32,000 nucleotides of DNA, from positions 1 to 32,000 of the forward strand of contig JAWOFX010000113.1 in the NCBI GenBank assembly GCA_046497275.1. Direction: 5' to 3'. This stretch comes from Promethearchaeia archaeon. Lineage in GTDB: Archaea; Asgardarchaeota; Lokiarchaeia; Sigyniarchaeales; SOKP01. The translations under genes were made by a program, and so were the position numbers. The notes beneath the pieces were generated by a model. It made no database searches, was not told the origin of the DNA, and worked only from the letters and a program-made list of their open reading frames with translations. Below, in pieces: positions 3,001-29,842 of the stretch; position 1 is the first letter of the stretch, and every line of letters starts with the position of its first letter.

Positions 3001-3890
3001 CACTTATAACAGATAATAATCTTGGAGCATCAGCTGGTTATGGATGGTTATTATCTGATATTTATATAGGATATAATCGGGAAGGAGATCATATAAAACC
3101 ATCAGTAGTTTCAATTAGTCCTTTAAATGGAGAAAGAGTAAATTCCATTACTCAAATAAAACTAAATTTAACTGATAATACAGCTATAGATCTTTCTAAA
3201 TTTGAAATTAAAGTTGATGGTGTACTTTACCAACCAAAAAATCTGCAATTTAACGAAACAACTGGATTACTAATATTTGATTGGAATACTTTTGATTATT
3301 CTGATGGATGGCATTCATTAGAAATAGTTGTGTTTGATAATAATAATAATAATCAAGAAATTATACTCAATCTAAAAGTCGATAATCTATTAATAAAATT
3401 ATCCAACTGGTTACCCTGGATTATTCTGGGAATTATTGTTGTGCTCTTAATGTCTATTATTTATCTTTATTCGAGAATTAATAATACCTCAATCCTCAAT
3501 AAAATTAAAGAAAAAATTATCTCGAAACCAACATCTAAAATTGACAGAGGGAAAAATAAAATTTTAAAGGAGATAAAAGATCTCGACACATCTTATTTAA
3601 AAAATCCATTAACACTGTATTGTAAATATTGTGATTCGTGGTTTTATTCGGATAATTTTGATATTATATGCCCATCATGTGGGAGAGATCAGATATATGT
3701 GGCTTATAAATGTTATAATTGTGGTAAATGGTACTTTAAGGAAGAACCAGGTGAGTATTATTGCGAAAAATGTGATGAGACACAATTAATTAGAAGGGAT
3801 AGGAAAGAGATGGAAGAGATAATTGCGAGAGAACACAAGAAAGTCTTAAAAAAATTCGAAGTAAAAAAAAGTAAACAACAAATCATTTAA
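3..3890 (+). CDS. S8 family (subtilisin-like) serine peptidase, membrane-anchored multidomain surface protein; 5' partial
   Basis: Frame is open to the window edge (TAT GAT precede the TTG at 9), so the true start is upstream. Subtilase motifs: GIANASKLLNYKVL, CLSLG, oxyanion AAGN, IKPDIVAPG, catalytic-Ser motif GYGTSISAALV, EGYGRLN. Then repeated beta-sandwich modules, an Ig-like domain, one TM helix (WLPWIILGIIVVLLMSIIYLY) and four CxxC motifs. Catalytic Asp/His not visible in the window. Confidence 0.85.
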   Translation, partial: YDLRVKYHKKTNKDPNISINSFSRFFPEFYIPEYKYFSGIANASKLLNYKVLNETGQGRVSNIISALGSVIQNRSANKIISVCLSLGNYEIDASAINLVIDEVVDNGIFVVIAAGNYGIDDFETINSLGKNKNAIVVGAINDKDQITSYSSMGKRIDSKIIKPDIVAPGGSKLNQYRTIVSADANSNLLTSGYGTSISAALVSAAINILMDAKWETWSNWESINKSKWTKIIKSVLLMTATETNQNREDDPDTEIIESQNRFSPPLYLEAINASSRSGLKDQQEGYGRLNIDAAVDALIKSISSEMEYNGYLSSSTSDPLGTHAFARNIILEENKQYLFNLTEIENDAIFDIYLFSNESTNYGEPILLESSRRTFGVNNFIYFTPRKNETSPILVLKAINGEGNFSLNISEVENNYDPLLKIPEISYNGNIKNTTVLSLSEREGDHPKNNNTLDRYKFYIEYFDNDSANVPPQQVIVSIQELSKNYTMNQINIADRNYTDGAIFASEEIELPNNLTYHYYFYIRDGEKESYFPIKGTHLSIRIENPLIIKNFPYDHCFNFGLDNWSLFGTGWNLLHQNEQHDNRSNIYGNNWEAVYFGSNYNYPINYTYQSIEMDEILNGSFLSPYFDLRDLEDNMNPILKIGFRCSINEDDVINLLININGSGWKSPPLKSYTDLENDWDLEEINLTEYKGNYVRFKFEAILDENTDLINYKGFMIDFISIVNKTNYESPHIYFNSTKNIQVKPDLEFQKVIFSINYFDNDNNYPEYVYIEIENTNYSMVNYFGNWNASSNISEDKGIIFIRSISLGIFSNYSFKFHISDGKYTISSKLYNQDNSLINFAQPSSLQYNIYQNLNPIGYLFNETLQDFYISGIPVQKENTAWLRGDNSWHIIKKLYNNYIYGGTANLFNSQERGYGRNWEAELITKPIEIKTDKKVYLEFLYEIDLEFQGENGGDKGVVSISRDYGDTWTILKNYDSNGEGTEKLDISNEIGDIIMIKFTLITDNNLGASAGYGWLLSDIYIGYNREGDHIKPSVVSISPLNGERVNSITQIKLNLTDNTAIDLSKFEIKVDGVLYQPKNLQFNETTGLLIFDWNTFDYSDGWHSLEIVVFDNNNNNQEIILNLKVDNLLIKLSNWLPWIILGIIVVLLMSIIYLYSRINNTSILNKIKEKIISKPTSKIDRGKNKILKEIKDLDTSYLKNPLTLYCKYCDSWFYSDNFDIICPSCGRDQIYVAYKCYNCGKWYFKEEPGEYYCEKCDETQLIRRDRKEMEEIIAREHKKVLKKFEVKKSKQQII

Positions 3891-3906
3891 AAATTAACTT
3901 AAAAAT

Positions 3907-6873: not shown

Positions 6874-6911
6874 TAGTTTAATCTATTTAGAGGCTTAATC
6901 TCCCTCTTTTT

Positions 6912-7508
6912 TTAAAAGGAAAAAGAGTGCTTTTTTAGAAAATTTATCAATTTCTCTAATGCTCTACCCCGATGAGAGACCGTATTCTTTTGATCAACGG
7001 AAAGTTCTCCAAAGGTTTTATCTGGTATTTCATTTGGTATAAAAATAGGATCATAACCAAACCCTTGTGTACCCCGTATTTCACTACTGATTCTCCCTTC
7101 GATCTTGCCTTTGAAAAATAATTCTTGATCTTCTGGTTCAAAATATAGGGCGATAATTGCAGAGAAATGAGCCTTCGAGTTTTCAAAATCGTCAATGAGT
7201 CTAATTATACTTTTATTTCCTAAGGTTTTAAAGACATATGAGGAGTATATACCGGGAAAACCATTTAAAGGATAATCAATAAATAATCCAGCATCTTCAA
7301 TAAAAAAAGAACCGTCTATTTTACTCTTTACGCTATTTAACTTATACTCCGCAACTTTTTGAATTGAATCAGCTTGGATTTCTATTGGATTAAGATCGAT
7401 TTGCTTTAATTTGTAAGTGAGATGATAATTTTTAAAAATTGTTTGGACTTCATCGAATTTATGGGTATTACCAGTTACAAAAGAAAGCAAGTCATTTTTC
7501 TTTTTCAT
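6912..7508 (-). CDS. rdgB: RdgB/HAM1 family non-canonical purine NTP (XTP/dITP) pyrophosphatase
   Basis: Motifs FVTGNTHKFDE, EDAGLFI, GFPGIYS, GFGYDPIF, SHRGRAL. Confidence 0.95.
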   Translation of the reverse strand: MKKKNDLLSFVTGNTHKFDEVQTIFKNYHLTYKLKQIDLNPIEIQADSIQKVAEYKLNSVKSKIDGSFFIEDAGLFIDYPLNGFPGIYSSYVFKTLGNKSIIRLIDDFENSKAHFSAIIALYFEPEDQELFFKGKIEGRISSEIRGTQGFGYDPIFIPNEIPDKTFGELSVDQKNTVSHRGRALEKLINFLKKHSFSF

Positions 7509-7585
7509 AGTTATAATAATTAATTAATGATTTTAAACTATCAAAATAATATAATAATTATACTATAAATAAGAGGGCATATAAA

Positions 7586-8899
7586 ATGTCATCCCAATAT
7601 GATTTTTTAATAATTGGGGGAGGAATCGCCGGACTTCATATAGGGGCACTTTTATCCCAACATGGTAAAGTAATAGTTTTTGAGAAGAGCCATGAGATTG
7701 GTGGAAGGGCGCGAGTCGAAAGTATCAATGGGTTTAAACTTGATTATGGAATCCATCCTATTAGATTTGGTCCCAATAGTGCTATAGGTACTTCTTTATT
7801 AGAAATCAATAAATCTATTAGTTTTATTAAGCCTGGAAAATCATGGGCTTTTTTAAAATTCGGAGAAAAAACTATTTTTCCTACCGGCGGAATAATGGCT
7901 ATAGTTAGAAGTTCGATGGTTCCCTTCACAAGCACATTAAAATTATTATTAAAAATCAAGAAAATGGACACTAAGGATTTCCAAGAATTGTATGATCTTT
8001 CTTTAAAAGAATGGTTTGAAGAAGAAAATATAAGATTTGAACTGAGAAAATTTCTTATAATGACAAGTTCTGCGATACAAGTGAACCCCTTCCCAGGAAG
8101 ATCATCTGCTGGGGAGCTACTTCATAATATTAAAAGAGTTTTAGAGATTGGCAGTGTGTATTATCCAAAAGGCGGTTGGAGCCCCTTATTTTCTAAATTC
8201 TCGGAGAGAATCGAGGAAAATGGAGGGATGATCAAAACAAATTCAAAAGTTCAGGAAATAATTATTGAAAATGGGAAAGCGGCAGCTGCCAGGGTGAATG
8301 ATGAAAGAATCTCGGCAACTAATATTATATCAACTATTCCGGTACAAAAAATATTCACAATCTTAGATGAGCATCATTGCAAGGAGGAATTTGTAAAAAA
8401 ATGCAAAAATCTTCGTCCCACTGCGGGAATTTCAATAGATTTTTGTTTAGAAAAGAAAATATCAGAGATAGATGGTATGATTTTCTTTGAAAAACCCTTA
8501 TCTTTCGGATTTATTCCTTCCAATTTGTCTCCTGAACTTGTTCCCGAAGGAAAATCTTTAATGTCTTTCTTACGAGTGGCAAATCAAGAAGATATAAAAA
8601 ATAAAAGTAAAGCAGAGAGTTTATACCAAGAATTTCGTCAAAATATCATTAGATTTTTTCCTGATATAGATAAATATCTTATTAAAGAGAGACCACTCTT
8701 TCTCGAAATGGTTGATGGAGTTGAAGTCAATATAGATCAACATCAATTTAAAAGACCCGGAAATCAAATTGACAGTATTTCTAATTTATGGATAACGGGA
8801 GACAGTGTAGGCGGCGAAGGGGCTGGGGGAGACGTAGGACATACTTCTGTTAGAGATTGCTATCAAAAAATAATAAGATCCAATAATAAAAATTTCTAA
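7586..8899 (+). CDS. FAD-dependent oxidoreductase, phytoene desaturase/amine oxidase-like
   Basis: N-terminal Rossmann motif IIGGGIAGL, EKSHEIGGRA, DYGIHP, YYPKGGW, C-terminal LWITGDSVG. Substrate unknown. Confidence 0.8.
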   Translation: MSSQYDFLIIGGGIAGLHIGALLSQHGKVIVFEKSHEIGGRARVESINGFKLDYGIHPIRFGPNSAIGTSLLEINKSISFIKPGKSWAFLKFGEKTIFPTGGIMAIVRSSMVPFTSTLKLLLKIKKMDTKDFQELYDLSLKEWFEEENIRFELRKFLIMTSSAIQVNPFPGRSSAGELLHNIKRVLEIGSVYYPKGGWSPLFSKFSERIEENGGMIKTNSKVQEIIIENGKAAAARVNDERISATNIISTIPVQKIFTILDEHHCKEEFVKKCKNLRPTAGISIDFCLEKKISEIDGMIFFEKPLSFGFIPSNLSPELVPEGKSLMSFLRVANQEDIKNKSKAESLYQEFRQNIIRFFPDIDKYLIKERPLFLEMVDGVEVNIDQHQFKRPGNQIDSISNLWITGDSVGGEGAGGDVGHTSVRDCYQKIIRSNNKNF

Positions 8900-9031
8900 T
8901 CTCATTTTTTTAATAAGAAATACAAAAACATAATCATTAATAGGAAAAATATTTGTTAATAATCAAAGAAATAATATAGTAAATATCGATAATTATTAAT
9001 TAATCTGTTCAAGAAAGACCATTTTTGGAAA

Positions 9032-10333
9032 ATGACTTTTATCTTTTTAGAGTTTCAACAACTATTCTTAATGGTTAGTGCGACTTTGATTTTAAGTATA
9101 GCATGTGTAAAAAGAAAGTCTCTCTATAATTATCTCATAGCGTATTGTTTTCTTACTTTAGGTGTCTTTTTCCGTTCTTTTGTCTTTTTAAATGAATCTT
9201 TTAATATTATGGCATATATAGGTTATGCTATCGCTATGATTATTACATTTTTAGCTGTTTTAAATGACTATTACAGGATATTTATTAAAACAAAAACTAG
9301 AACTTCCGGAAGCCTAATGAAAACCATGCTTTTATTTCAATCATTATTATTAAGCATAGAAATAATGATATTAGTCTTAGCTCTCATTAGCGTCATATTA
9401 TTGACAAGGATCTATTTTAAACAAAGGAGTCCTACATATGCTTTTATTGGATTATCTATTTTTGCTGCGTTTATAAGTCTTTTCTTTAGTACACTTTATA
9501 CTATTGGATTGGATTGGACTTACGAATTTAGTGAAGGAATTGATAATATCATGTATAGTTTTATGTTGGTGACTGGTATTGTCGCATTATTAGAAAACAA
9601 GATACGAGAATCTGAAATTAAATATAAAGAAGCTTATGAGACATCAGAATTCTATAAAGACTTGATTGCTCACGATACTGCTAATATTCTACAGAACATG
9701 AGTACTTCTTTAGATATTGCTTCAATATACTGCCAAAAAACTGAAACTCAAAAAGAAATGAATAATTTAATAAAAACGATGGAAGAACAAATTCAAAGAG
9801 GAAAAACTCTAATTTATAATGTTCGTACGATTACTGATTTTAAAACAGGAACTTTTTCAAAAAGGAAAGTTGATATCCAAAATATTATCGGAAAATTAAT
9901 CGAATATATCCCAGAGAATTATAGTGAGAAAAATATTAATTTTGAATTAAGAGTAGATGAAGGACCACATCTTATTAAAGCTAATGACTTTTTATTAAAT
10001 ATTTTTGAAAATATTCTTACGAACGCCATAAAACATAATGATAATGAAAAAATAGAAATAAATATAAAAATTCAGAGAATAAAAAAAAATCAAAATAATT
10101 TAATTAGGACAGAATTTATTGACAATGGAAGAGGAATTAGAGATCAGATTAAGGAAGAAATCTTTAGTAAAGAATATACTAGTACTAATCTTCTTAGACG
10201 TACTAGCTTAGGTTTATATTTAGTGAAAAGGATAGTGGAAAGTTTTAATGGGGAAATAACGGTTAGAAATAGAATAGAGGATGATCATTCGAAAGGTAGT
10301 AATTTTATCATATTATTTCCTGCTATTGAATAA
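9032..10333 (+). CDS. Membrane-bound sensor histidine kinase
   Basis: About six N-terminal hydrophobic segments; H-box AHDTANILQ; N-box IFENILTNAIKH; G1 DNGRGI; G2-like TSLGLYLVKRIVE. Confidence 0.9.
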   Translation: MTFIFLEFQQLFLMVSATLILSIACVKRKSLYNYLIAYCFLTLGVFFRSFVFLNESFNIMAYIGYAIAMIITFLAVLNDYYRIFIKTKTRTSGSLMKTMLLFQSLLLSIEIMILVLALISVILLTRIYFKQRSPTYAFIGLSIFAAFISLFFSTLYTIGLDWTYEFSEGIDNIMYSFMLVTGIVALLENKIRESEIKYKEAYETSEFYKDLIAHDTANILQNMSTSLDIASIYCQKTETQKEMNNLIKTMEEQIQRGKTLIYNVRTITDFKTGTFSKRKVDIQNIIGKLIEYIPENYSEKNINFELRVDEGPHLIKANDFLLNIFENILTNAIKHNDNEKIEINIKIQRIKKNQNNLIRTEFIDNGRGIRDQIKEEIFSKEYTSTNLLRRTSLGLYLVKRIVESFNGEITVRNRIEDDHSKGSNFIILFPAIE

Positions 10334-10509
10334 CTTCTATTGATTATTAGTATGATCTCATAAGATTTTGAATTCTTAAATGAAATAAATAATCTTCATG
10401 GTTTAAGTAATAATTAAATCCAAAAATTTTTTTAATTTCCTTTATTTTAAACATTATCGTTCGAGATTTTTAAAAAAATTTAGAATTTTAAATAAAAAAG
10501 AAGATTATT

Positions 10510-10968
10510 ATGGCAAGACTTCATAGTAGAAAGCATGGCAAGTCAGGAAGTACGCGTCCAGCCAGATTGGAGAGACCAGTTTGGATCGAGCGCTCAGCAG
10601 AGGAAGTAGAAGCGGAAGTGATAAGATTAGCAAAGAAGGGACTTTCGAAATCTATGATTGGAACTCAATTGCGAGATGCATATGGAGTTCCCCTTGTAAA
10701 GGTTATAACGGGTAAAAAAATAAGTGATATTCTAAACGAAAATGACTTAATTGACCCATTACCCGAAGATCTTACAAATTTAGTTAAAAAAGCGTTAAAT
10801 TTAAGAACACATCTTGAAAATAATAAAAGAGATCTTGAAGCAAGAAAGGGATTACAACGCACAGAATCTAAGATTTATCGTTTGGTTAAATATTATAAAG
10901 ATAATGATGTTTTAGCCCCCGATTTTAAGTATGATTCTGAAAGAGTAAGAACTCTTGTGGCAAAATGA
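10510..10968 (+). CDS. rps15: 30S ribosomal protein S15 (uS15, S13e family)
   Basis: Archaeal/eukaryotic-type N-terminus MARLHSRKHGKSGSTRP; IGTQLRDAYGVPLVK; LPEDL...ALNLRTHLENNKRD...ESKIYRLVKYYK. Confidence 0.97.
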   Translation: MARLHSRKHGKSGSTRPARLERPVWIERSAEEVEAEVIRLAKKGLSKSMIGTQLRDAYGVPLVKVITGKKISDILNENDLIDPLPEDLTNLVKKALNLRTHLENNKRDLEARKGLQRTESKIYRLVKYYKDNDVLAPDFKYDSERVRTLVAK

Positions 10969-11014
10969 TATCTTTTTATCTACATTCAAAATTATTTAAA
11001 TAGGATTATTTAAT

Positions 11015-11836
11015 ATGAGTCAAAAATCAAAATCTAAACGAAGAAAAAGAAAACCTAAAACAAAGAAAGCAGATTATAGATCAAAAAAATGGTTCGAAGT
11101 GTATGCTCCTGAAAGTTTCGATAATAAAAAAATTGGAGAAATTATTGGATTAGAAAATAATGTTTTAGACAGAACCGTAGAAACTCTCTTATATGACTTC
11201 ACAGATAATTATGATGATATTAGTTGCAAATTAAGATTTAAAGTGATCAATGTAAATACGGAGGCACAGAATTGTTATACTACTTTAGTTGGACATGAAT
11301 ACACAAGTGATTATATTAGAAGCTTGGTTGGAAGAGGGGCTACAAAAATAACAACAATAAATAATTTCACCACTAAGGATGAATATATTTATCGTTTAAC
11401 TACTGTTTGTGTTACAATTCGAAGAGCTCGTAGTTCTCAACAAAATTTAATTAGAAAAATAATGAGGAAAATCCTTAATGAGTTTTCGAAAACAACAGAA
11501 CACGAAAAATTCATCCGTGGAATGATATTCGGAGAGTTCGAAAATCAGATTAAGAGAATCGCGAAAACTATTTATCCTCTTTCCAGTTGTACGATAATAA
11601 AGAGTAAATTGATTTCTATGCCTGAAGGAGGTACTGACAAAGAAATTAAAGATGAAGAGTTTGATATTGTAGAAATAGATGTTGAGAGATCAAGAAAATC
11701 TGAGATACGTCGATCAGAGAGAATTAATGTCAAAAAGTATGCTTATGAAAAGCAAAAAGAAGAAGAGGAAGAGTCTGAAGAAGAGTCTGAAGAAGAATCT
11801 GAAGAAGAAGTCGAAGAGGAAATCAAAGAAGAGTAA
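11015..11836 (+). CDS. rps3ae: 30S ribosomal protein S3Ae (eS1) with acidic C-terminal extension
   Basis: KKWFEVYAP, LDRTVETLLYDFT, KLRFKV, GHEYTSDYIRSLVGRG, AKTIYPL...IIKSK; follows rps15 after a 46-nt gap. Confidence 0.95.
   Translation: MSQKSKSKRRKRKPKTKKADYRSKKWFEVYAPESFDNKKIGEIIGLENNVLDRTVETLLYDFTDNYDDISCKLRFKVINVNTEAQNCYTTLVGHEYTSDYIRSLVGRGATKITTINNFTTKDEYIYRLTTVCVTIRRARSSQQNLIRKIMRKILNEFSKTTEHEKFIRGMIFGEFENQIKRIAKTIYPLSSCTIIKSKLISMPEGGTDKEIKDEEFDIVEIDVERSRKSEIRRSERINVKKYAYEKQKEEEEESEEESEEESEEEVEEEIKEE
11768..11815 (+). repeat. Coding 12-bp tandem repeat (GAAGAGTCTGAA-like, about 4 copies) encoding the Glu-rich S3Ae tail
   Basis: gaagagtctgaa gaagagtctgaa gaagaatctgaa gaagaagtcgaa read directly at 11768-11815. 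Confidence 0.8.
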
Positions 11837-11998
11837 AATTAGAATAGGAAAAATAAAGATTTATTTAGTATACTAATCCCTTTTTTTATATAGGTAATAT
11901 TGATTCTTATTCAAAGATCCTTCATTAAATTCATCTTATAATTTAAAATAAATAGCTTTCTTATTTATTATTAAAAATAATTTAATTAGGTTAAAATT

Positions 11999-13717
11999 AT
12001 GTGTGCTCAATATCAAGAAGGTGATAAAAATAATCCTTACGATTTTGATGATTACTTATTCGTGAGGGATAATTTTAATTACTATGATGATGAGGAATTC
12101 TTCCAAGCCTTAATCAAAACATTTATACCAGAAAATGAATTTGAAAAAATTGATCGTGATTTAAGGGCATTATCGGACTATGTTTCGTTCCGATTTCGAG
12201 ATCTTGCTGAGGAGGCAAATCAGCTTGAAAATCGAATTAAAGTTACTAAAGTGAAACATTATGATGCCCATAACCATAGAATTGACAGAATCGAGCGGTG
12301 TGGAGAGACGGAAACTTTAGAAAAAGAAATCTTTAGCCTTGGATTATTCGATCCGAATCGAAATACTGCTTGGTCAAGGTTTGCGAAGATGTTCCTTTTA
12401 TATCAGAACAGTGAATTTGGTTGTATGTGTCCAATTGCATGCACCCATGGAATGTACGAGTTTTTACAAAAATACGAGGACGATCTTGATCCTGAAGCAA
12501 AAAAAATACTTCATCATATCAGAGATGGCATAGAAGGAGATTATGGGGTTGGTGCTCAATTTGTAAGTGAAATTCAAGGTGGAAGTGATGTACCAGCAAA
12601 TTTAGTTGAAGCTGTTTTTGAAGAGGAAGAAGGAGAAGATGGAATATCACATTGTTGGCGATTATATGGTCAAAAATTCTTTTGTTCTGCAGTCCACGCA
12701 GACTATGCTGTGGTTACGGCCAAACCTAAAGGAGTTCCCTCTTCTACACGTGTAGCAGCCTTTCTTGTACCCTCATGGTTATCAGGAAATAAAGAAAAAG
12801 AAATTCGAAACTCTTATACAATTGACAGGTTGAAACCAAAGATGGGTACATCAGAATTACCAACTGCGGAAGTTACTTATAATGGTGCTATTGGGTATCC
12901 TATTGGTCCTTTGGAAAAAGGACTTGCAAACGTGGTTGGAATAGTTCTCTCAATATCACGACTTCATGTGGCTTTCGGTATGGCAGCAGCAGCTTTACGC
13001 ATTGCTCGAGAAGCTACATTATATGCCCAATTCCGCGAAGCTTTTGGGGTTCCTGTTTCAAATTTTCCCTTAATGATAAATCAAATTAACGATCTCAATC
13101 AATATGCCAAGAGAGCTGCAGCAGGAGCATTTAAAATATATTCAGAGTATATTCATTTTGATGAAGAGCTTATTTCAGGAATAAGAAATCTACAAGAAAT
13201 TGATAATATGAAAGAGCGAAAGCGTCGATTTCGGTTAAGAGAATTAATAATGCTCCAAAAAATTGTTGTAGCAGATGATGCTCCAACAATGATACGAATG
13301 GCAATTTCTTTCTTTGGGGGACATGGAGTAATGGAAGATTTCTTATCATTCCCCAGATTTTTCCGGGATAGTATAATCATGGAATTATGGGAAGGTCCTC
13401 GTAATGTATTGCTTACTCAAATTCATAGAGATTTTCAAAGAGTTGCTGAATGGTATTCTGCGGATGAATTTATAAAAGACCTGCTAGATGGTCTAGAAAA
13501 AGAAAGAGTCCAGGATCTTGCCATGAGGTTTCAGAAAATAATTTCTCATGATTCATTGCTAAAAGCAGATGAAGAGACTCTTCAATTATGTCGAGATTGG
13601 CAATCACTATCAAATGAAATATTCCATGCGTATCAAGATTTAGCTTTAAAAGAAATGGGTTATGAAGAAAAAGCCTTAAAGTTTTCAAAGCTATTACGAA
13701 AATTTAGGAATAAATAA
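11999..13717 (+). CDS. Acyl-CoA dehydrogenase family protein (AidB-like)
   Basis: AQFVSEIQGGSDV, LYGQKFFCS, RLKPKMGTSELPTAEV, FGGHGVMED, RDSIIMELWEGPRNV; long N-terminal extension as in AidB-type members. Confidence 0.9.
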   Translation: MCAQYQEGDKNNPYDFDDYLFVRDNFNYYDDEEFFQALIKTFIPENEFEKIDRDLRALSDYVSFRFRDLAEEANQLENRIKVTKVKHYDAHNHRIDRIERCGETETLEKEIFSLGLFDPNRNTAWSRFAKMFLLYQNSEFGCMCPIACTHGMYEFLQKYEDDLDPEAKKILHHIRDGIEGDYGVGAQFVSEIQGGSDVPANLVEAVFEEEEGEDGISHCWRLYGQKFFCSAVHADYAVVTAKPKGVPSSTRVAAFLVPSWLSGNKEKEIRNSYTIDRLKPKMGTSELPTAEVTYNGAIGYPIGPLEKGLANVVGIVLSISRLHVAFGMAAAALRIAREATLYAQFREAFGVPVSNFPLMINQINDLNQYAKRAAAGAFKIYSEYIHFDEELISGIRNLQEIDNMKERKRRFRLRELIMLQKIVVADDAPTMIRMAISFFGGHGVMEDFLSFPRFFRDSIIMELWEGPRNVLLTQIHRDFQRVAEWYSADEFIKDLLDGLEKERVQDLAMRFQKIISHDSLLKADEETLQLCRDWQSLSNEIFHAYQDLALKEMGYEEKALKFSKLLRKFRNK

Positions 13718-13808
13718 TATCAATAAAATACATTAAATTATCCCTTGAAACAATACTTAATTTTTTTTAGATCCTATTTTTATGTAAAAATCTTATAAAT
13801 TTTTATTA

Positions 13809-15116
13809 TTATTTTTTTAAACTAAGCTTTTTAAGAATAGTTCCTTTTTCAGGATCTTGATAATATAGAGTATTGGGTGGAATATCATCTGAGACAACTG
13901 CATGGGCTCCTATTTGAGCATTTTCACCGATTTTTTTCCCACACATTATACTAACATTAATACCTGTTTTCACATTTGGTCCAACAAAAGTTCCTAATTT
14001 TTTTCTTTTCGAATCAACTGGTTTTCCTTTAATATTCATGGAGATATTACCTTTATCAAGCCTTAGATTCGCTACCTTTGTACCTGCACCAAAATTAACT
14101 TTATCAGCAATAATTGAATCTCCAAAATAATTAAAATGAGGAATATTTGTGTTTGAAAAAACTATAGAATTTTTTAATTCACTCATTCCAATATAACAGT
14201 TATCTTGAATTGATGTGCCAGGACGTATAAAGGCATTTGGGCCAATAATATTATTTTTGCCTATATAACATGGACCTTGAATATAGGATCCGGATCTAAT
14301 TAATGTGTCCGCTCCAATGAAAACATTTCCTTTGATAATAACATTTTCCTCAATATCTCCATTAATATCTCTATTAATCTTTTCTAATAATAACTTATTT
14401 GCATCTAATATTTGCCACGGTAGACCTATATCGTTCCAATTAGATTCTTCCAAGATATATCCGTAAATTTTTCCATTTAATTTTTCGACTAATATCTCCA
14501 TAGAATCAGTGAGTTCATATTCATTTCTGTTAGATAATTTGGTTTTTTCTATCGCTTCAAAAATTAAAGGGTTAAAAATGTAGATACCTGCATTTGCTAA
14601 ATTTCCCAAATTTAGTTCAGCAGGAGGCTTTTCAGTTATTTTTTGTACCAAATTTTGAGAGTCCAATGAAATGATGCCATAATTAATTGGATTTTGGACT
14701 TCTATTAGAGATATAAGGCCCTCAACATTTTTATCTTTGTATTCATGAATGATTTTTTTGAAAATATCGGGATTTATTAATAAATCACCATAAATCATTA
14801 GGAAGTTATCATCTTTAACAAATGATTTCGCAAATCCAGTTGCATGGGCGGTTCCTAAATATTCATCTTGTGTTTTATAATTAATATTTAAACCGACTTT
14901 TTCTTTTCCATTTCCAAAATATTCTTGAATAATCTCTTTTTTATACCCTACAATTAGTAAAACATCCTCAATCCCAGCATTTTTAAGGGCTAAAAGGGTG
15001 TACTCCAACAGAGGGCGTCCCGCGAGAGGTATCATTGGTTTTGGTACAGAAGATGTGATTGGTTTTAATCGTTTTCCCTCTCCGGCAACTAAGATAACTG
15101 CTTTCATAATACTCAC
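13809..15116 (-). CDS. glmU: Bifunctional sugar-1-phosphate nucleotidyltransferase/acetyltransferase (archaeal GlmU type)
   Basis: MKAVILVAGEGKRLKPIT, PKPMIP, LGTAHA, IYGDL, NAGIYIF, WNDIGLPW, then hexapeptide repeats with HFNYFGDSII and FGAGT. Likely start is the ATG at 15107. Confidence 0.9.
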   Translation of the reverse strand: MSIMKAVILVAGEGKRLKPITSSVPKPMIPLAGRPLLEYTLLALKNAGIEDVLLIVGYKKEIIQEYFGNGKEKVGLNINYKTQDEYLGTAHATGFAKSFVKDDNFLMIYGDLLINPDIFKKIIHEYKDKNVEGLISLIEVQNPINYGIISLDSQNLVQKITEKPPAELNLGNLANAGIYIFNPLIFEAIEKTKLSNRNEYELTDSMEILVEKLNGKIYGYILEESNWNDIGLPWQILDANKLLLEKINRDINGDIEENVIIKGNVFIGADTLIRSGSYIQGPCYIGKNNIIGPNAFIRPGTSIQDNCYIGMSELKNSIVFSNTNIPHFNYFGDSIIADKVNFGAGTKVANLRLDKGNISMNIKGKPVDSKRKKLGTFVGPNVKTGINVSIMCGKKIGENAQIGAHAVVSDDIPPNTLYYQDPEKGTILKKLSLKK

Positions 15117-23084: not shown

Positions 23085-23606
23085 TTAATCGGAGATTTCT
23101 TGTCCTATATTTTTATCGATAATGAAGAAATCAATTGATAAAACACTTTTTAATCTTTCTAAATCTTGTTTTAAATCTCTTATTCTATTATAATCTCCGG
23201 AAACAGCTATAATTTCAATACATTTTTCGTATTCTATATGAACATGCATTGTTGAGACAATGACATCAGCAAAATGATGTTGGATATCATTATTTAAAAT
23301 TAAATCTGTCTGATGAATATTTGCATATATCGGTCTTGATTTAAAATCATGATCGTGTGTATCGGTATCGTTTTCATGAATGTGATCTTGTTCCTCTCCT
23401 ATATGTTCATGAGACATTATCATTGCTATACATCCAACAACATCACCTGCACTTTCGGGAAGATTCTCCTCTATAGCCATATATCTGTGCATTGCTTTTC
23501 GAACAGCATCAGATCTAGACACCTCCAATTTCTTTCGAAACTTCTCAAATTCTTGATAAAGAGTTTTGGGAAGGGAAACAGTAAAACGTTTGTATTCTTC
23601 ACTCAT
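23085..23606 (-). CDS. nikR: NikR-like nickel-responsive ribbon-helix-helix regulator with His-rich insertion
   Basis: RHH N-terminus KRFTVSLP...SRSDAVRKAM; metal-binding domain with IQHHF, STMHVHI and CIEIIAV matching the NikR His/His/His/Cys Ni site. Confidence 0.85.
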   Translation of the reverse strand: MSEEYKRFTVSLPKTLYQEFEKFRKKLEVSRSDAVRKAMHRYMAIEENLPESAGDVVGCIAMIMSHEHIGEEQDHIHENDTDTHDHDFKSRPIYANIHQTDLILNNDIQHHFADVIVSTMHVHIEYEKCIEIIAVSGDYNRIRDLKQDLERLKSVLSIDFFIIDKNIGQEISD

Positions 23607-23711
23607 TTGAATTTTATGTTTCTTTTTTAACTATTTTTATTAATCTTACACTTTTTAAATATATTTGAGATGAAAATAATTTATAACTGTTTCTTATCAA
23701 TTAATTTTTCT

Positions 23712-25166
23712 TTAAAATGAATCAAATATTCCTATTTTTCCCTCTATAGGTTTTAGGATTTTAATACCTTCATTATCGATGGAGTATTCTATAAAATGTT
23801 TAGAATGATTCGAATCTCTCATTTTTAATATACCTATGCCACGAGTCATTAGACCGTCGCGTTCAAAATATCTTAATAAAATTATTGCATCAGCAAGAGT
23901 TGAGATATGTCCCATTCCTTTATTAAAATGATCTGAAAATGTAGGAGTAGTCGTTGTAAAGATTGCTATAATATTATTTTCTCGGATGAAAAGAAAAAGA
24001 TTAATGAGTGATTGTCTAAAAGTAAGGTTGCTAGTTATTCGTTCTAAAGCAGAAATACTGTCAATATAAATTCTATCCGGTTTAAAGGATTGTATTTTTG
24101 ATTTCATATCCACAATAAGCTCTTCGATTCCTTGAGATTCTGGATAAATACAGTTCAACATAAATATACCATCATTTTCCGGTTGTTCTAAATCTATATT
24201 CCAATTACGAGCTTTCTGGAGAATCTGTTCTCGACTCTCCTCAAAATTGAACATAATGCATTTTTCCCCATTTTGTAAAGACCCCTCTAACAATAGAAGT
24301 GTTATTAATGTTTTACCTGTTCCTGTTTGACCAGAAATCAGGATTGATGAGCCCTCGAAGAACCCTCCTCCCACCATATCATCGAGTTCGCTATAACCTG
24401 TAGATTCTCTTTCCCGCTTGGCAGGTAGTTCATTAGGATTTCTTTCAAATGAAATAATTATTATTCCTTCATTTTTTTTGATGGTGAAGGACTCTCTACC
24501 CTTTTTATGAGGCACTCCTCGATATTTTAAGATTTCAATTGTTCTTCTACGATGCTCTTCAAAAATAGTATTCTGGAGGAGGATTACATTATCACTAACG
24601 AAATCAAGAATATTATAATGTGAATCTTTTCCAAATTCTTCATATTGTTCCATTGTGATGATAGAGGTTACCGATAACGACTTTAAACATGATTTTAATC
24701 TGATAATTTCCTTCCGAACAATTGATTTATCAGGAAATCTATTGAATAAAACAGCGATAGAATCTAATACTACACGTTTTGCATTGATTTTTTCTACTGC
24801 ATTCTTAATTCGAATAATTAAACCACTTAAATCATAATCGCCTCGTACTAGAAAATCATCCTCTATACGCGGGGAAATATCAACAAACTCCCAAAATCCT
24901 GAATCCTTATATTTTTGAATATCTAATCCAAAATCTTTCATATTAATTATTATATCTTCGGGTGATTCTTCAAAAGTGATGAAGACTCCAGGATCTTTTG
25001 AATGGTTTATTCCTCCAATGAGAAACTGTACACAAAAGGTACTTTTCCCGCTGCCAGGCGTACCTGAAAGTAACGTCATTCTATTTTCCGGTATTCCACC
25101 CATCGATAAAATATCGAATCCATCAATTCCACTCGGAATTTTTTTTATGCTTTTCATAAAATTCAA
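23712..25166 (-). CDS. kaiC: Circadian clock protein KaiC (double RecA-domain)
   Basis: CI Walker A GTPGSGKST, FITFEES, B-loop region DISPRIEDDFLVRGDYDLSGL, EILKYRG; CII GQTGTGKTL, FNFEESRE, HISTLADAIILL, ILKMRDS. Start is TTG 25166 or ATG 25157. Confidence 0.93.
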   Translation of the reverse strand: MNFMKSIKKIPSGIDGFDILSMGGIPENRMTLLSGTPGSGKSTFCVQFLIGGINHSKDPGVFITFEESPEDIIINMKDFGLDIQKYKDSGFWEFVDISPRIEDDFLVRGDYDLSGLIIRIKNAVEKINAKRVVLDSIAVLFNRFPDKSIVRKEIIRLKSCLKSLSVTSIITMEQYEEFGKDSHYNILDFVSDNVILLQNTIFEEHRRRTIEILKYRGVPHKKGRESFTIKKNEGIIIISFERNPNELPAKRERESTGYSELDDMVGGGFFEGSSILISGQTGTGKTLITLLLLEGSLQNGEKCIMFNFEESREQILQKARNWNIDLEQPENDGIFMLNCIYPESQGIEELIVDMKSKIQSFKPDRIYIDSISALERITSNLTFRQSLINLFLFIRENNIIAIFTTTTPTFSDHFNKGMGHISTLADAIILLRYFERDGLMTRGIGILKMRDSNHSKHFIEYSIDNEGIKILKPIEGKIGIFDSF

Positions 25167-25184
25167 GTAATTTTGAGGTGAAAT

Positions 25185-25436
25185 TTATATGAAAAAATCC
25201 TTTTCAGAATTAGAAAAATCTCCTATAAATCTCCTGGTTGGTCCAGGTAGGGTTCTTATCAAAAAAGGTGTTGCTATAACTCCAGCTTGTTCCGCAACTT
25301 GGGGATTATTCAATATATCAATAATCGTTAAATCATAATCAATATTCTTTAAACTTTCTTTTAAATTGCTTAATGCTGTCTTAGATTTGAGATCATTAGA
25401 ACCGGCTAAAAATAATAAAAATCTTACCTCGGACAT
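25185..25436 (-). CDS. kaiB: Circadian clock protein KaiB (short C-terminus)
   Basis: LFLAG, IIDILNNPQVAEQAGVIATPFLIRTLPGPTRRFIGDFSN closely follows cyanobacterial [39 protein letters not shown]; directly upstream of kaiC. Confidence 0.93.
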   Translation of the reverse strand: MSEVRFLLFLAGSNDLKSKTALSNLKESLKNIDYDLTIIDILNNPQVAEQAGVIATPFLIRTLPGPTRRFIGDFSNSEKDFFI

Positions 25437-25671
25437 TTTTTTATATTCTATTTTTTTTTCTATACCTTATCATATTACCTATAAAAAAAAGATTTAAAAA
25501 TGTTTCTTATGAAAATTATTGATATTAATAATAAATAAGATTAAATATCAAAACTCAATCTTTAATTTTAATTTCGTAACAACATTTTTGAGAGAAACTT
25601 TAAAAACTAGAAATAGTCTTTACTAAGATCTGAAATTCCTAAAATATGTAAAAGTAATTTCAATTAAAATA

Positions 25672-26406
25672 TCATTTACTAATAAATATAGCAATAGGTA
25701 CACTTGCTTCGCGCCATTGAGCTATCTTTCCGGAAAATTCGAAATCCATGCGTGATCTGCCATGATCTCCTATAATAATCATTAATGAACCATTTCTTAA
25801 TTGCTTATAATTACTTAGTATCCATTTATCTGTTCGATTTATGAGTTTTTCAATTAATTCCTCAGGAGTCTGTTGCCTTAATCTTTGTTGCTGTTTATGA
25901 AGATTTTCAAAATCTAAATAATGCATCCAAGAGAGATCATAATTATTTATAGCTTTTGCTGATTCTATCCATGTTGCCATGTCAGTATCTTTTGCAATAG
26001 AATTAGTTCCCCCATCATAACGCTCTATATCTTTTTTACGTCCAACAAAACAAGTATTTTTTCCATTTTCATTAATATATTTAAGTAGATGAAATCCATT
26101 CGGTTCGTATTCAAACCCACCGAACATTAATTGGTGAAGAACTCCCAAGGTGTATGGATTCTTGGTGCTTAAAAGTGTCATTATTTCAGATTTTTGGATC
26201 ATAAACTCGGGTTTAAAATACGTAATTTCAAATAATCCCGCATTAGAGATTAAATTAATCGAAATCCGCTTAACTCCTTTATATCTTTCAGTGATCTCTT
26301 TGATTGGATGTGGAATAGTATTTGTTGGGGGATCCAAATCAAGCAATTTTATTAAAGTTGCCGGTAATTGAGAAAGATAAGCCTTTACAGTTTTTAATTC
26401 ACTCAT
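25672..26406 (-). CDS. Alkaline phosphatase superfamily protein, degenerate active site
   Basis: MIIIGDHG motif and alpha/beta pattern; first metal Asp position reads LISNAG; second reads LDFENLH. Confidence 0.6.
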   Translation of the reverse strand: MSELKTVKAYLSQLPATLIKLLDLDPPTNTIPHPIKEITERYKGVKRISINLISNAGLFEITYFKPEFMIQKSEIMTLLSTKNPYTLGVLHQLMFGGFEYEPNGFHLLKYINENGKNTCFVGRKKDIERYDGGTNSIAKDTDMATWIESAKAINNYDLSWMHYLDFENLHKQQQRLRQQTPEELIEKLINRTDKWILSNYKQLRNGSLMIIIGDHGRSRMDFEFSGKIAQWREASVPIAIFISK

Positions 26407-26554
26407 ATTATAAGATCTCTTAATTATTGAAGATAGATTTTAATGTTAAATTACTTAATATTATAATAATAATCACACTTTAATTATTTTATTTAATCAA
26501 TCTAATTAAAGATAATTTCGAAAATTATACTTAATCAAAAAATAAGGAAATAGT

Positions 26555-26794
26555 ATGAATGCAAAAAAGAAATTAGAACTTATTGACACTATATTAGAGA
26601 GACATCATGAAGGTAGCTGTCTTTATTGCGGAGGAACTTTAAATAGGGATTTATTGGGAGAGGATTGGGATGAGATGAATCCTGATACCTACTGTACTTA
26701 CTGTGGCAAGGATATTGACCCTTATGATGAGTGGGATCAAATGGCTATAGAAGCTATAGCAAAAGTTTTAAATGATGAGCGTTTTAAAGCTTAA
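26555..26794 (+). CDS. Small zinc-finger (CxxC...CxxC) hypothetical protein
   Basis: CLYCGG and CTYCGK separated by an acidic loop; ATG start, purine-rich upstream region. Confidence 0.7.
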   Translation: MNAKKKLELIDTILERHHEGSCLYCGGTLNRDLLGEDWDEMNPDTYCTYCGKDIDPYDEWDQMAIEAIAKVLNDERFKA

Positions 26795-26821
26795 ACTTTT
26801 TTAATAATTAATTTTTATTTT

Positions 26822-28528
26822 TTGAGTAAAATTACGAATTTGAATATGAGACTAAAGAAAAACAAGAATTTAATTATTGCAATTATTGGATTTTTACTAT
26901 CAATCAATTCACTCATTATAATATATGTTGGAGATCTCCCGTTGTTTAATTTGCAATTAATATCTTTTCAAGATGAAGGGGGAGATAATCTCATTGGTCA
27001 ATATCATAGCGGAAATAAAAAGGCAGGTATTATTATACTAGAAGGATTTAGTACCGACCAAATGGCTATGAAATCTATTAATTCTGAATTCAGTAAGTTA
27101 GGATTTCACACATTTAGTTTTGATTTTTCTGGACAAGGACGATCGGGCGGGACTCTTGGATTTGATAATGCTGCAACCGATCGCCTGGCAAAACAAGTAT
27201 TAAGTGCGAAAGAGGAATTTAAATCATTATCAGGTTTGAATGATTCTCAAATTGTTCTTTTAGGTCATAGCATGGGTGCACGTGTAGCTCTTCAATCAGC
27301 AACTATAGATACATATAATGTTTCAGGATTAATACTAATTGGCGTTCAAGTAAATTTAATTCCAAATGTTCAAGCGGGATTCTTTACAGGAGTCTCAGAT
27401 TTGGAACTGGAATGGATCCAAAATTTATCAATAACTAGTCCGCCCGTGGATATTTTGTTATTATCTGGTTCACTCGATGATATCATTAGTCCAAAAGCAG
27501 CAAGATTATTATTTGAAAAGCTGGGAGAAAATTCTGGATCATTTATAAGAGAATTGGAGATATATCCATTATTGTTTCATAATTACGAAATTTACTCTCC
27601 GTTTTTAATTACTAAATCAATAAATTGGGCAGTTGAAAACCTAGGTTTAGAATCCAATCCACAATACTTTGCTATACAAACTTTATTAAGGAAAATATTT
27701 TGGATAATCGCATTAATAGGTTTATTCATGATTCCACTGTTCGGAGCTCACTATTTATCTGAAATAAGGAAAAGTTCCTCACCGAGAGAAACAAACAAGC
27801 ATCAGAACCATCAAATAAGTAATAATTTGCAAATAAAAGATGTAAGCCGATTTTTTAAATTTAAATTGCTTTATTGGATAGGCGCGATTCCAATTGCATT
27901 ATTATTACTTTTTTTATTATTTTTTATTCCCATAGGGTTGCCAATATTTAGCCTTTTTTATGTTGGTTTTATTGGGAGCTATGGAATTTTGATGTTGATT
28001 CTTTATAAAAAAGGCAAAGTAGCAGGAACTCAAGGTAAATTGATGATAAATTTTAAAGTTGAAAAAGAATCTATCAATAAAAATTTGGGAATATCAATTG
28101 TTTTTTCATTATTGTTTATAGTCATTTGTGGATTATTTTTTAATTCTGGGATAAATTACGTATTTCCATTCAATGCGAGAGTGAATTGGTTAATAATCTT
28201 TACAATCCTCACCATTCCAGGATTTTTTATAGGGCAAAAAGAAGCAACGCTATTAAATGATTCGGAGTATGCAAGTGGGAGAAATAAAATAATCTTATGG
28301 ATCATTGGCTTAGTTCCTTTTCTCATAATTTCAATTTTCTTTGCCATTTTGGGTTCTATCTCAGGGATGATTGGCTCTATACATGGAATAATCATTCTTG
28401 TTTTCATAATTGTTTCTGGAAATTTTATTTCAAAATTAAGTAAACAGCCATTTGTCACAATAATTTATCAGTCTTTTCTCATTCAATTACTTGTTTTAAC
28501 ACAAGGTGCACTTTTTGCCATTTTATAA
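26822..28528 (+). CDS. Alpha/beta hydrolase fused to a polytopic membrane domain
   Basis: N-terminal TM/signal segment, FDFSGQGRS, nucleophile elbow GHSMGA, acid SGSLDD, candidate His in LFHNYE; about eight C-terminal TM segments. Likely start is ATG 26846. Confidence 0.85.
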   Translation: MSKITNLNMRLKKNKNLIIAIIGFLLSINSLIIIYVGDLPLFNLQLISFQDEGGDNLIGQYHSGNKKAGIIILEGFSTDQMAMKSINSEFSKLGFHTFSFDFSGQGRSGGTLGFDNAATDRLAKQVLSAKEEFKSLSGLNDSQIVLLGHSMGARVALQSATIDTYNVSGLILIGVQVNLIPNVQAGFFTGVSDLELEWIQNLSITSPPVDILLLSGSLDDIISPKAARLLFEKLGENSGSFIRELEIYPLLFHNYEIYSPFLITKSINWAVENLGLESNPQYFAIQTLLRKIFWIIALIGLFMIPLFGAHYLSEIRKSSSPRETNKHQNHQISNNLQIKDVSRFFKFKLLYWIGAIPIALLLLFLLFFIPIGLPIFSLFYVGFIGSYGILMLILYKKGKVAGTQGKLMINFKVEKESINKNLGISIVFSLLFIVICGLFFNSGINYVFPFNARVNWLIIFTILTIPGFFIGQKEATLLNDSEYASGRNKIILWIIGLVPFLIISIFFAILGSISGMIGSIHGIIILVFIIVSGNFISKLSKQPFVTIIYQSFLIQLLVLTQGALFAIL

Positions 28529-28552: not shown

Positions 28553-29842
28553 TTGAAAAATATGAAAGTTTTGTATATTGATACTGAGAACTCAGGAATT
28601 TCTGGTGATCTTTTTTTAAGTGCTTTACTTGCCTTAATCAAGAATCAGAATAAGTTAATCGCAGAATTAGAAGAGCTGAAAAATTATTTACCAGGAGTGA
28701 AAAGACTTAATATCAAATTAATTAAAATAGAAGTCAGCGGTATCATCGTGAATAAATTGATAATTGAATTAGAGGAGAAAAAAAATCATAGAAGCGCCTT
28801 AGATCTTAAAAAAGCGTTGAAAAATTTTTTAGATGATAAAGAGTTTTCTGAAGCTGCTAAAAAGTACGCTAAAGATGTTTTAGATTCCTTAATTAAAGCT
28901 GAATCTTCGGTTCATAATAAATTAGAAGATAACATTCATCTTCATGAATTAAGTTCAGTTGATACATTAATTGACATTTTAGGAGTAACAAAAACTCTAG
29001 ACATTTTAGGCGCTTTTAGAGGTGATTTGAGTATTTATACTAGCAAACTTCCCTTAGGCGGGGGTAACATTGAAGCAGCTCATGGTACCTTACCAATACC
29101 CGCTCCTGCGACGAGTAAAATCATTGAGAATTCTAAACTTATTGTATATCTCGGTCCTATTGACGATGAATTAACCACACCTACAGGGGTGGCTCTTTTA
29201 GTAAATCTAAACCCAAAAATAAATAAAATTGAATTTAATCTCAAAAAAGTTGCATATAGTACTGGAGAAAAAGTATTCGATGAGTTTCCAAATATATTCC
29301 GCATTCTTTTTGGGAAAAAATACTTAGATTCTGAATTTGCTACACATCTTATTCAATACAGAGAAAAAGTTTCTGTTATTGAGACTAATGTTGATGATGT
29401 ATCGGGAGAAATAATTGGTGATTTCATTGAGCAAATGGAAAATAAGGTTTTAGATATTCAAGTGATTCATTGCTTAACTAAAAAAAATAGACCGAGTTAT
29501 ATTATTAAAATTTTATGTGATCCTGAAAATAAATTCAAGATCATTGAGGAAATTTTGGAGAATTTGGGAACATTAGGAGTAAGATATTACGACATTGACA
29601 GGATATGTGTTGATAGGGAAATTAAATCTCTAAATATTGAAATTGATAATACTATTTATTCTGTGAGATATAAGATTTCTTTTATAATAAAAGAAAATCA
29701 GAAGAAGATTATTAACATTAAACCCGAATATGAAGATCTTAAAAAATTAAGAGATATAACTAACTATTCCATTAAAAGACTAAAATCAATAATTCTTCCA
29801 AAATTAATGAATGATGTCTATAAAGATAATGATATAGGTTAA
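28553..29842 (+). CDS. larC: Nickel pincer cofactor biosynthesis protein LarC (nickel insertase)
   Basis: SGISGDLFLSAL, AESSVH...IHLHELSSVDTLIDILG, AHGTLPIPAPAT, ELTTPTGVALL, IETNVDDVSGE, KPEYEDL. Likely start is ATG 28562. Confidence 0.93.
   Translation: MKNMKVLYIDTENSGISGDLFLSALLALIKNQNKLIAELEELKNYLPGVKRLNIKLIKIEVSGIIVNKLIIELEEKKNHRSALDLKKALKNFLDDKEFSEAAKKYAKDVLDSLIKAESSVHNKLEDNIHLHELSSVDTLIDILGVTKTLDILGAFRGDLSIYTSKLPLGGGNIEAAHGTLPIPAPATSKIIENSKLIVYLGPIDDELTTPTGVALLVNLNPKINKIEFNLKKVAYSTGEKVFDEFPNIFRILFGKKYLDSEFATHLIQYREKVSVIETNVDDVSGEIIGDFIEQMENKVLDIQVIHCLTKKNRPSYIIKILCDPENKFKIIEEILENLGTLGVRYYDIDRICVDREIKSLNIEIDNTIYSVRYKISFIIKENQKKIINIKPEYEDLKKLRDITNYSIKRLKSIILPKLMNDVYKDNDIG

Follow-up and report, generated by a model that had tools for sequence, protein, structure and literature searches.

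Does a kaiB-kaiC gene pair in an Asgard archaeon encode a clock, a simpler device that registers the state of the cell, or a signalling pair unconnected with timing? The question is raised by a stretch of 32,000 nucleotides (positions 1 to 32,000 of contig JAWOFX010000113.1, assembly GCA_046497275.1, from a Promethearchaeia archaeon; hereafter the window), whose minus strand carries kaiB and kaiC between positions 23712 and 25436. This kaiBC pair is a trimmed form of the known bacterial KaiB-KaiC switch and no new kind of clock, and we lean towards the reading that it would act as a KaiA-independent phospho-switch or hourglass reading the energy state of the cell.

The upstream gene, kaiB (25185-25436), encodes 83 amino acids (aa) and matches the KaiB family model PF07689 with 61.5 bits against a cut-off of 27. 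It is separated from the two-domain (CI+CII) kaiC (23712-25166) by 18 nucleotides if kaiC begins at its TTG codon, giving 484 aa, or by 27 if it begins at the ATG at 25157, the start used in public gene calls, giving 481 aa. KaiC scores 532.8 bits against the double-domain KaiC model NF006799 (cut-off 408) and 367.8 bits, in two stretches, against PF06745. It aligns with solved KaiC proteins at 45-50% identity (E-values of 1e-118 to 1e-147, 398-494 bits), the top match in PDB being an ancestral KaiC-beta (8ZN5), and KaiB finds its matches in PDB at an E-value of 4e-14.

Alignment of KaiC residues 6-470 with residues 17-479 of the Synechococcus elongatus protein in PDB places K41, E66/E67, K285, E309/E310, S422/T423 and R450 at the equivalents of K52, E77/E78, K294, E318/E319, S431/T432 and R459. 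In the CI domain, the Walker A motif GTPGSGKS (25041-25064) is followed by the glutamate pair (EE pair) in TFEES (24963-24977), the B-loop region of residues 99-112 (24831-24872), which aligns with S. elongatus residues 110-123 and is the predicted docking site of KaiB, and the arginine finger KYRGVPH (24507-24527). The CII domain likewise contains a Walker A motif, GQTGTGKT (24309-24332), an EE pair in NFEES (24234-24248) and an arginine finger, KMRDSNH (23805-23825). Its HISTL motif (23895-23909), with His420, Ser422 and Thr423, corresponds to H429, S431 and T432 of S. elongatus, of which S431 and T432 are the phosphosites, and the two equivalent codons occupy 23898-23903. In a comparison of 53 KaiC proteins T423 is invariant and S422 and H420 are nearly so. 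The original prediction had described the kaiB-kaiC order, the gap and this entire set of motifs, and all of them were located as described. With intact reading frames and every catalytic and phosphosite motif kept, kaiB and kaiC are, judged by their sequences, a genuine operon kept by selection.

Both proteins are trimmed at their C-terminal ends. In alignment A1 KaiC stops at the equivalent of S493, inside the A-loop, with the terminal residues GKIGIFDSF (23715-23741). The tail following the CII arginine finger (KMRxSxH) measures 37 aa in the window protein and 35-43 aa in 18 proteins of the Lokiarchaeial (Loki) clade to which it belongs, against a median of 56 and a range of 44-78 in 101 other homologues. 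KaiC thereby lacks the distal half of the A-loop, the KaiA-binding tail and the coiled-coil extension of the KaiC2 type. The protein had been predicted to end 30-35 aa earlier than its Synechococcus counterpart; it is indeed shorter, but the C-terminal shortfall is about 26 aa and the rest of the 35-aa difference is N-terminal. KaiB in turn ends at the equivalent of Thermosynechococcus elongatus G89, immediately before a conserved LLGLDL segment (alignment A2) that covers the G89/D91 region. In the subclade of the window pair, all six KaiB proteins share this end and a length of exactly 83 aa, and are also three residues shorter in the alpha1-beta2 loop, while comparably short ends occur in just three of 76 sampled bacterial KaiB proteins. 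The trimmed KaiC and KaiB segments are conserved across the clade.

The position at which KaiC ends bears directly on its probable activity. Truncation of S. elongatus KaiC after residue 487 reportedly leaves the protein constitutively hyperphosphorylated (Kim et al., PNAS, 2008). When buried, the A-loop holds back the autophosphorylation of KaiC, a restraint that KaiA lifts, while an A-loop that is exposed, or whose restraint is absent, gives KaiA-independent kinase activity; KaiC of Rhodobacter sphaeroides, with its exposed A-loop, phosphorylates itself within half an hour (PMC10076222; PMC11372060). Because the window KaiC ends inside the A-loop, the protein is, by analogy, most simply read as a constitutive autokinase.

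The module is KaiA-free in both senses of the term. We found no match to KaiA (PF07688) at E<=1 in the 98.9%-complete genome or in the window, with the control positive in S. elongatus; the original prediction had noted the lack of kaiA in the window, and the lack extends to the genome as a whole. KaiA3 of KaiC3 systems comprises a receiver (REC) domain and a KaiA-like domain and is encoded upstream of kaiB3 (PMC11372060). A KaiA3 query against the host genome returned REC-domain matches only, over query residues 2-123. The whole genome contains one KaiB-domain match, and therefore no SasA-type kinase.

The pair is rare, and its origin is bacterial. Of 400 genomes of the phylum, just 7 besides the host's own have a close KaiC of full length, each with kaiB directly upstream, and KaiB scores above the cut-off in 9 of 135 family genomes. 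A large protein search recovered about 14 KaiC clusters of 62-71% identity and 479-487 aa, beyond which the next matches are bacterial at 45-50%. A contig search with the single window KaiC protein as query gave no relatives, and a word-based search for KaiB homologues only two candidates; the donor search, made with alignment A1, is a sample comprising the best 80 of 600 sampled matches. References for KaiC1 and KaiC2 were taken from cyanobacterial and purple-bacterial genomes, the KaiC1 loci with kaiA-kaiB upstream and the KaiC2 locus with a 576-aa KaiC. In a maximum-likelihood tree of 68 sequences (LG+C20+F+G4, KaiC2 as outgroup) KaiC1 splits off with support of 100/99, and the 19 Loki sequences form a monophyletic clade (100/100) whose stem is 1.05 substitutions per site long, inside the bacterial KaiC3-type (group III) radiation and apart from KaiC1 and KaiC2. 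The sister of this clade differs by tree, being cyanobacterial KaiC3 in a quick tree (support 95) and, weakly, the Asgard genome G128 in the more careful maximum-likelihood tree just described (63/83); several Loki sequences are of deviant composition, which may affect the tree, and the exact placement should not be over-read. Transfer from bacteria to archaea is the favoured direction because the Loki clade appears nested in bacterial KaiC3-type sequences. The tree indicates that this is a fast-evolving clade derived from bacterial KaiC3-type KaiBC/KaiA3BC systems by horizontal transfer, which bears out the horizontal acquisition that had been suggested.

The pairing as such is not new to archaea, and to present it so would be an overstatement. 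Schmelling et al. (2017) reported KaiB together with full-length KaiC in four archaeal genera and found KaiB restricted to genomes with full-length KaiC (PMC5520375), and the window pair is likewise a bacterial-type KaiB with a full-length KaiC. Several of the close clusters are already publicly named 'circadian clock protein KaiC [Promethearchaeota / Candidatus Lokiarchaeota archaeon]', and KaiB genes of Lokiarchaeota genomes assembled from metagenomes are likewise auto-annotated as KaiB in NCBI. Our literature search found no paper discussing KaiBC in Asgard archaea. As a separate observation, in two genomes, G272 (L113:7281-8271, G272:C24) and G164 (L016, G164:C394), kaiB directly precedes the gene for a CI-like KaiC of 243 aa with a single domain, which shares 48% identity with the CI domain of the window protein, and no CII follows anywhere downstream; a receiver and a CheB-CheR-PAS kinase border these loci, and in G272 histidine kinases do so too.

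The host is a Lokiarchaeial (Asgard) archaeon, as had been predicted. The metagenome-assembled genome (MAG) from which the window derives (contig C110) comprises 3.85 Mb and is estimated to be 98.9% complete with 4.4% contamination. The contig that carries kaiBC also bears genes for the archaeal/eukaryotic-type ribosomal proteins uS15 and eS1. Furthermore, a same-genus genome (G274; SHMW01, Promethearchaeota archaeon isolate BC3) shares with the window a collinear run of 13 genes at 62-89% identity, including kaiB, kaiC and both flanks. The kingdom Promethearchaeati, to which Promethearchaeota belongs, we take to be the Asgard archaea. An identical KaiC occurs in the same gene context on contigs from three samples, a 92.5%-identical copy (L149) with the same neighbours on an 84 kb contig, and a 71% relative on a contig of 604 kb in a genome that comprises 10 contigs. 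Independent assemblies and three species-level lineages thus share the arrangement seen in the window, G274 and L149. Because of the archaeal ribosomal genes, the synteny and the independent assemblies, misbinning and chimerism are in practice excluded, and with them the possibility, raised alongside the original prediction, of a misbinned bacterial fragment. In two relatives, genes for Arf/Rag-family small GTPases of the eukaryote-like kind typical of Asgard archaea lie a few kb from kaiBC (L109:2207-2803 in G163, and L137:8042-8890) and serve as host markers of those contigs.

Within the genus, kaiBC has the character of a self-contained unit of about 2 kb that is mobile or can be relocated. 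The cassette (about 2.07 kb, 23607-25671) consists of a 235-nucleotide AT-rich region (25437-25671, upstream on the minus strand), kaiB, kaiC and a further 105 nucleotides, and lies between an alkaline-phosphatase-like gene (25672-26406, minus strand, 244 aa) and a nikR-like gene (23085-23606, minus strand). This site is filled in the window, in L149 and in G274. In five genus-mates (G277, G273, G275, G278 and G276) it is empty, the two flanking genes adjoining at a distance of 25-70 nucleotides, and the AT-rich region, which is present in all three filled sites, is missing as well. This region is a presumed promoter at most; a promoter/terminator scan, which is of a bacterial type, gave 22 matches against 21.6 in shuffled sequence, and we claim no promoter. 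G277 holds a kaiBC pair of the same subclade elsewhere in its genome, beside a P-type ATPase gene. Comparison of the AT-rich cassette junctions, the only comparison made in this regard, revealed no obvious target duplication.

The unit is nonetheless no decaying recent insertion, a possibility that had also been raised. The GC content and that of third codon positions (GC3) are 0.325/0.239 for kaiC and 0.306/0.214 for kaiB, inside the range of the window genes (0.312 +/- 0.035 and 0.225 +/- 0.028). Measured against L149, a close relative, the ratio of nonsynonymous to synonymous substitution rates (dN/dS) comes to 0.107 in kaiC and 0.106 in kaiB, and it spans 0.09-0.18 among relatives of the G277 type; these closer relatives were chosen because comparisons with G274 and G277 themselves are saturated at synonymous sites. 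Both genes are under purifying selection. They share 63.5% and 56% identity with their counterparts in G274, against 82-85% for the flanks, and thus diverge faster, and the similarity of KaiC, closer to G277, is at odds with that of the flanks, closer to G274. Either a lineage-specific acceleration or exchange of the cassette would explain this pattern. In the comparison with L149 the synonymous divergence (dS) is also uneven along a single syntenic block (genes 23085-28528), at about 0.30-0.35 for kaiB, kaiC and an alpha/beta-hydrolase gene and 0.13-0.15 for the alkaline-phosphatase-like and nikR-like genes, which could reflect recombination or codon constraints.

Structure models lend limited support to a canonical mode of interaction. 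The AlphaFold2 model of KaiB (predicted local distance difference test score, pLDDT, of 81) shows a beta-alpha-beta-alpha-beta-beta topology with a disordered end and matches KaiB structures with TMq values of 0.72-0.80, the best being fold-switched KaiB (5JYT, TMq 0.79), followed by Legionella KaiB (4KUN) and R. sphaeroides KaiB (KaiB-RS, 8FWJ); its top 50 matches include none described as ground-state KaiB. A predicted complex of KaiB with the CI domain (KaiC residues 1-245) scored 0.83 against 0.16 for the best control, with the prediction runs agreeing in at least 96% of contacts and a partner pLDDT of at least 87. The KaiB interface would comprise CI residues 95-123, that is, the B-loop. 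Of 80 solved complexes, 58 come up to the score mark attained here, as do 2 of 110 mismatched pairs, and the predicted complex resembles a solved one (5JWO), of which it may be a memory.

Three known systems offer themselves for comparison. The KaiB3-KaiC3 systems of group III, such as KaiA3B3C3 of Synechocystis sp. PCC 6803, share with the window pair the kaiB-kaiC order and a two-domain KaiC without a long coiled-coil tail, and the Loki clade nests in the radiation that contains the cyanobacterial KaiC3 loci (45-47% identity). The family does not depend on KaiA(1) and has been connected with growth in darkness, which is affected by the loss of KaiC3 (PMC6989803). It differs in the KaiA3, or the C-domain of KaiA3, encoded upstream of kaiB in about 45 of 78 sampled bacterial loci, which the window genome lacks, and the Loki proteins stand apart by their long branches, a KaiC tail 13-20 aa shorter and a KaiB without the LLGLDL end. 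The KaiBC system of R. sphaeroides (Cereibacter sphaeroides; KaiC2; 8DBA, 8FWJ) is likewise a KaiA-less pair, upon whose KaiB the window KaiB model superposes. It forms an hourglass driven by ATP/ADP (PMC10076222; PMC11372060), and its proposed principle of a constitutive autokinase, a KaiB-assisted reset and an ATP/ADP cue (PMC10076222) is the one we propose here. However, its KaiC belongs to another subfamily (the window KaiC scores 257 bits against 8DBA and 398-494 against KaiC1 and ancestral KaiC proteins) and has a coiled-coil extension of about 50 aa and a dodecamer device, neither of which is present in the window KaiC with its 37-aa tail, and its locus has the order kaiC-kaiB with an adjacent PAS kinase, whereas the window has kaiB-kaiC and no PAS kinase. 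Finally, the residues K52, E77/E78, R226, K294, E318/E319, S431/T432 and R459 and the B-loop of KaiC1 in the S. elongatus KaiABC system all have equivalents in the window KaiC, but KaiA, the KaiA-binding tail, half of the A-loop and T426 (replaced by glycine) do not, and the 83-aa KaiB is modelled in a fold other than the ground state.

Based on these observations we propose a mechanism in which a KaiC hexamer would autophosphorylate Ser422 and Thr423 without KaiA, because the cut-short A-loop could not take the buried, autoinhibitory conformation. Phosphorylated KaiC would then expose the CI B-loop, on which the short KaiB, predicted to have a thioredoxin-like, binding-competent fold, would dock and shift KaiC toward dephosphorylation and reset. 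The net state would track the ATP/ADP ratio or another metabolic cue, making the pair an hourglass or energy-state switch. We infer the kinase activity, the binding of KaiB, the direction of regulation and the cue alike from homology.

Several observations weigh against this proposal. KaiC does not reach the equivalog model of circadian KaiC1 (TIGR02655, 438.3 bits against a cut-off of 546.25), nor does KaiB reach those of circadian KaiB (NF006798, 53.7 against 110 bits; TIGR02654, 50.9 against 145.3 bits). T426 matters for the ordered phosphorylation cycle of S. elongatus KaiC. Its equivalent was correctly predicted to be a glycine, and the PDB alignment places Gly417 (codon 23916-23918, minus strand) there; this position is variable within the Loki clade (G, E, T, S, V or I) and is a glutamate even in the 92.5%-identical L149 protein (G414E in the 481-aa numbering). 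The KaiB and complex models would indicate likeness to solved structures and not independently that the two proteins bind, and AlphaFold-type models favour the fold-switched state of KaiB. No histidine kinase or receiver adjoins kaiBC in the window, which has no visible output because of this lack of an adjacent kinase or receiver gene, unlike other Loki loci: in G276 and G128 kaiBC is embedded between receivers and PAS histidine kinases, and in G163 it stands beside a PAS protein and an Arf/Rag-like GTPase. In Legionella, kaiBC confers stress resistance with no reported interaction between KaiB and KaiC (review PMC10671191).

The main rival reading is that kaiBC encodes a non-timing signalling or stress-response ATPase pair, with KaiC as a hub and KaiB as an accessory without a phosphorylation cycle. 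In its favour are the absence of KaiA and KaiA3, the unconserved T426 equivalent, the missing C-terminal part of the KaiB fold-switch region and the lack of an adjoining output kinase. The stress resistance conferred by Legionella KaiC would exemplify such a role; a kinase/ATPase hub function has been shown for Legionella and Pseudomonas homologues, and KaiC-family ATPases have been treated as archaeal signal-transduction hubs (PMC5847659). Against this speak the pairing of kaiB with kaiC in all eight full-length Asgard loci and in nearly all sampled bacterial loci, the similar purifying selection on both genes, and the retention of the phosphosites, both EE pairs and the B-loop, to which may be added the canonical modelled interface, with the reservation that it may reflect memory of a solved complex. 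We give this explanation an appreciable but clearly smaller chance than the phospho-switch or hourglass.

It is quite improbable that KaiB and KaiC alone constitute a self-sustained oscillator of circadian or other period. The presence of every catalytic and phosphosite residue would allow for it, and a damped rhythm of about 24 h is reported to persist in kaiA-null Synechococcus (PMC7205874). However, neither KaiA nor KaiA3 is available for sequestration feedback (PMC11372060), KaiB is cut short in the segment associated with slow fold switching, and extant group III/IV KaiC proteins without a cognate KaiA are arrhythmic in vitro, as are ancestral KaiC-alpha and KaiC-beta (PMC12081879), the latter being the best PDB match (8ZN5). 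The original prediction of a KaiA-independent KaiBC timer, either hourglass or oscillator, therefore stands as regards a complete, KaiA-free module, but its oscillator half is unlikely with KaiA and KaiA3 missing and related KaiC proteins not self-sustained. That the pair is an artefact or dead DNA, be it a misbinned fragment, an assembly chimera or a decaying recent cassette, is hardly credible and already contradicted, since the 4.4% contamination, the five empty sites and the lower identity of kaiBC than of its flanks are outweighed by the ribosomal genes on the contig, the recurrence in independent assemblies of three species-level lineages and on a 604 kb contig, the host-like GC and GC3, a dN/dS of about 0.11, the intact frames and the complete motifs.

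Returning to the phospho-switch or hourglass, a bolder version of it, which we offer tentatively and do not hold to be likely, is that the cassette is a naturally minimised two-protein device. The loss of the autoinhibitory A-loop would make KaiC an always-on kinase, and the loss of the segment needed for the ground-state fold would leave KaiB always binding-competent. The slow fold-switch delay and the feedback through KaiA would both be gone, so that any timing would have to come from the KaiC ATPase and the energy state of the cell, in a 2 kb unit hopping among the genomes of dark-sediment Asgard archaea.

The survey also bears on the range of KaiA3, which Kobler et al. (2024) knew in cyanobacteria and five other bacterial genera only. 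The approximately 45 bacterial loci with an upstream partner carry, before kaiB, either KaiA3-like genes or genes for larger proteins ending in a KaiA3 C-terminal domain, and these genes before kaiB (about 45 of loci L029-L107) come from Chloroflexota, Planctomycetota, Nitrospirota, Pseudomonadota and Spirochaetota among other phyla. On these matches KaiA3 appears to be spread far wider than the five non-cyanobacterial genera of the 2024 report; cyanobacterial KaiA3-like proteins match the Pfam KaiA model weakly (E 0.02). In the Asgard genome G128, of the same class but another family, a 12-gene array on a 604 kb contig (L111, G128:C1:455000-474000, about 1454-14906, minus strand) encodes a PAS kinase, a receiver, a KaiA3-like protein, kaiB, kaiC, a second kaiB and kaiC, three kinases interleaved with a receiver, and a REC-X protein. 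Its KaiA3-like protein (L111:12107-13012) shares 41-44% identity along its entire length with proteins encoded upstream of cyanobacterial kaiB3, and a profile-profile comparison with KaiA (hhalign) gave an E-value of 2.7e-4 with a probability of only 42%; when the KaiA3-like alignment served as a profile against PDB, receiver domains overwhelmed the matches. This archaeal KaiA3B3C3 looks to be unreported.

A further family, P0125, consists of proteins of about 300 aa with a receiver and a 170-aa C-terminal domain without Pfam match, and has a copy in the host genome (G000:C25:2792-3652). A member adjoins kaiB in G272 and G164 and lies near kaiBC in G163 and G128. We rejected it as a dedicated kaiBC partner for want of specificity, as it is found in 118 of 135 family genomes, often in several copies.

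The genes flanking the cassette were also considered as participants. The protein encoded at 25672-26406 has a GDHG motif, no Pfam match and a weak phosphopentomutase-like match, and its atlas neighbours are small proteins of the alkaline-phosphatase/sulfatase type. We rejected it as a KaiA substitute or KaiC phosphatase given its alkaline-phosphatase superfamily membership, its conservation in wide Asgard clusters, and its occurrence in all seven genus genomes, in five of them directly beside nikR without kaiBC. The nikR-like gene, encoding a ribbon-helix-helix (RHH) and a NikR_C domain with a His/Asp-rich insert of about 40 aa between them, is a pre-existing neighbour present at the empty sites and was likewise rejected as a member of the module. 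Elsewhere in the window are a LarC-type nickel-insertion gene (28553-29842) and, on the plus strand at 3-6873, two very large open reading frames of at least 1295 aa (open at the window start) and 988 aa.

With these findings the hosts of bacterial-type KaiBC come to include Asgard (Lokiarchaeial) archaea. The proximity of the host lineage to eukaryotes, which the original prediction had mentioned, carries no weight for a pair that is patchy in distribution, of bacterial origin and missing from the cassette site of five genus-mates. Because it is rare, bacterial in origin and cassette-borne, the pair has no bearing on the origin of the eukaryotic clock, nor on eukaryote ancestry. The trimmed pair, with its A-loop-less KaiC and 83-aa KaiB, is small, selected and easily expressed, which makes it convenient for testing which parts are needed in a KaiA-free phospho-switch, and equally for asking what role KaiBC has in a non-phototrophic anaerobe.

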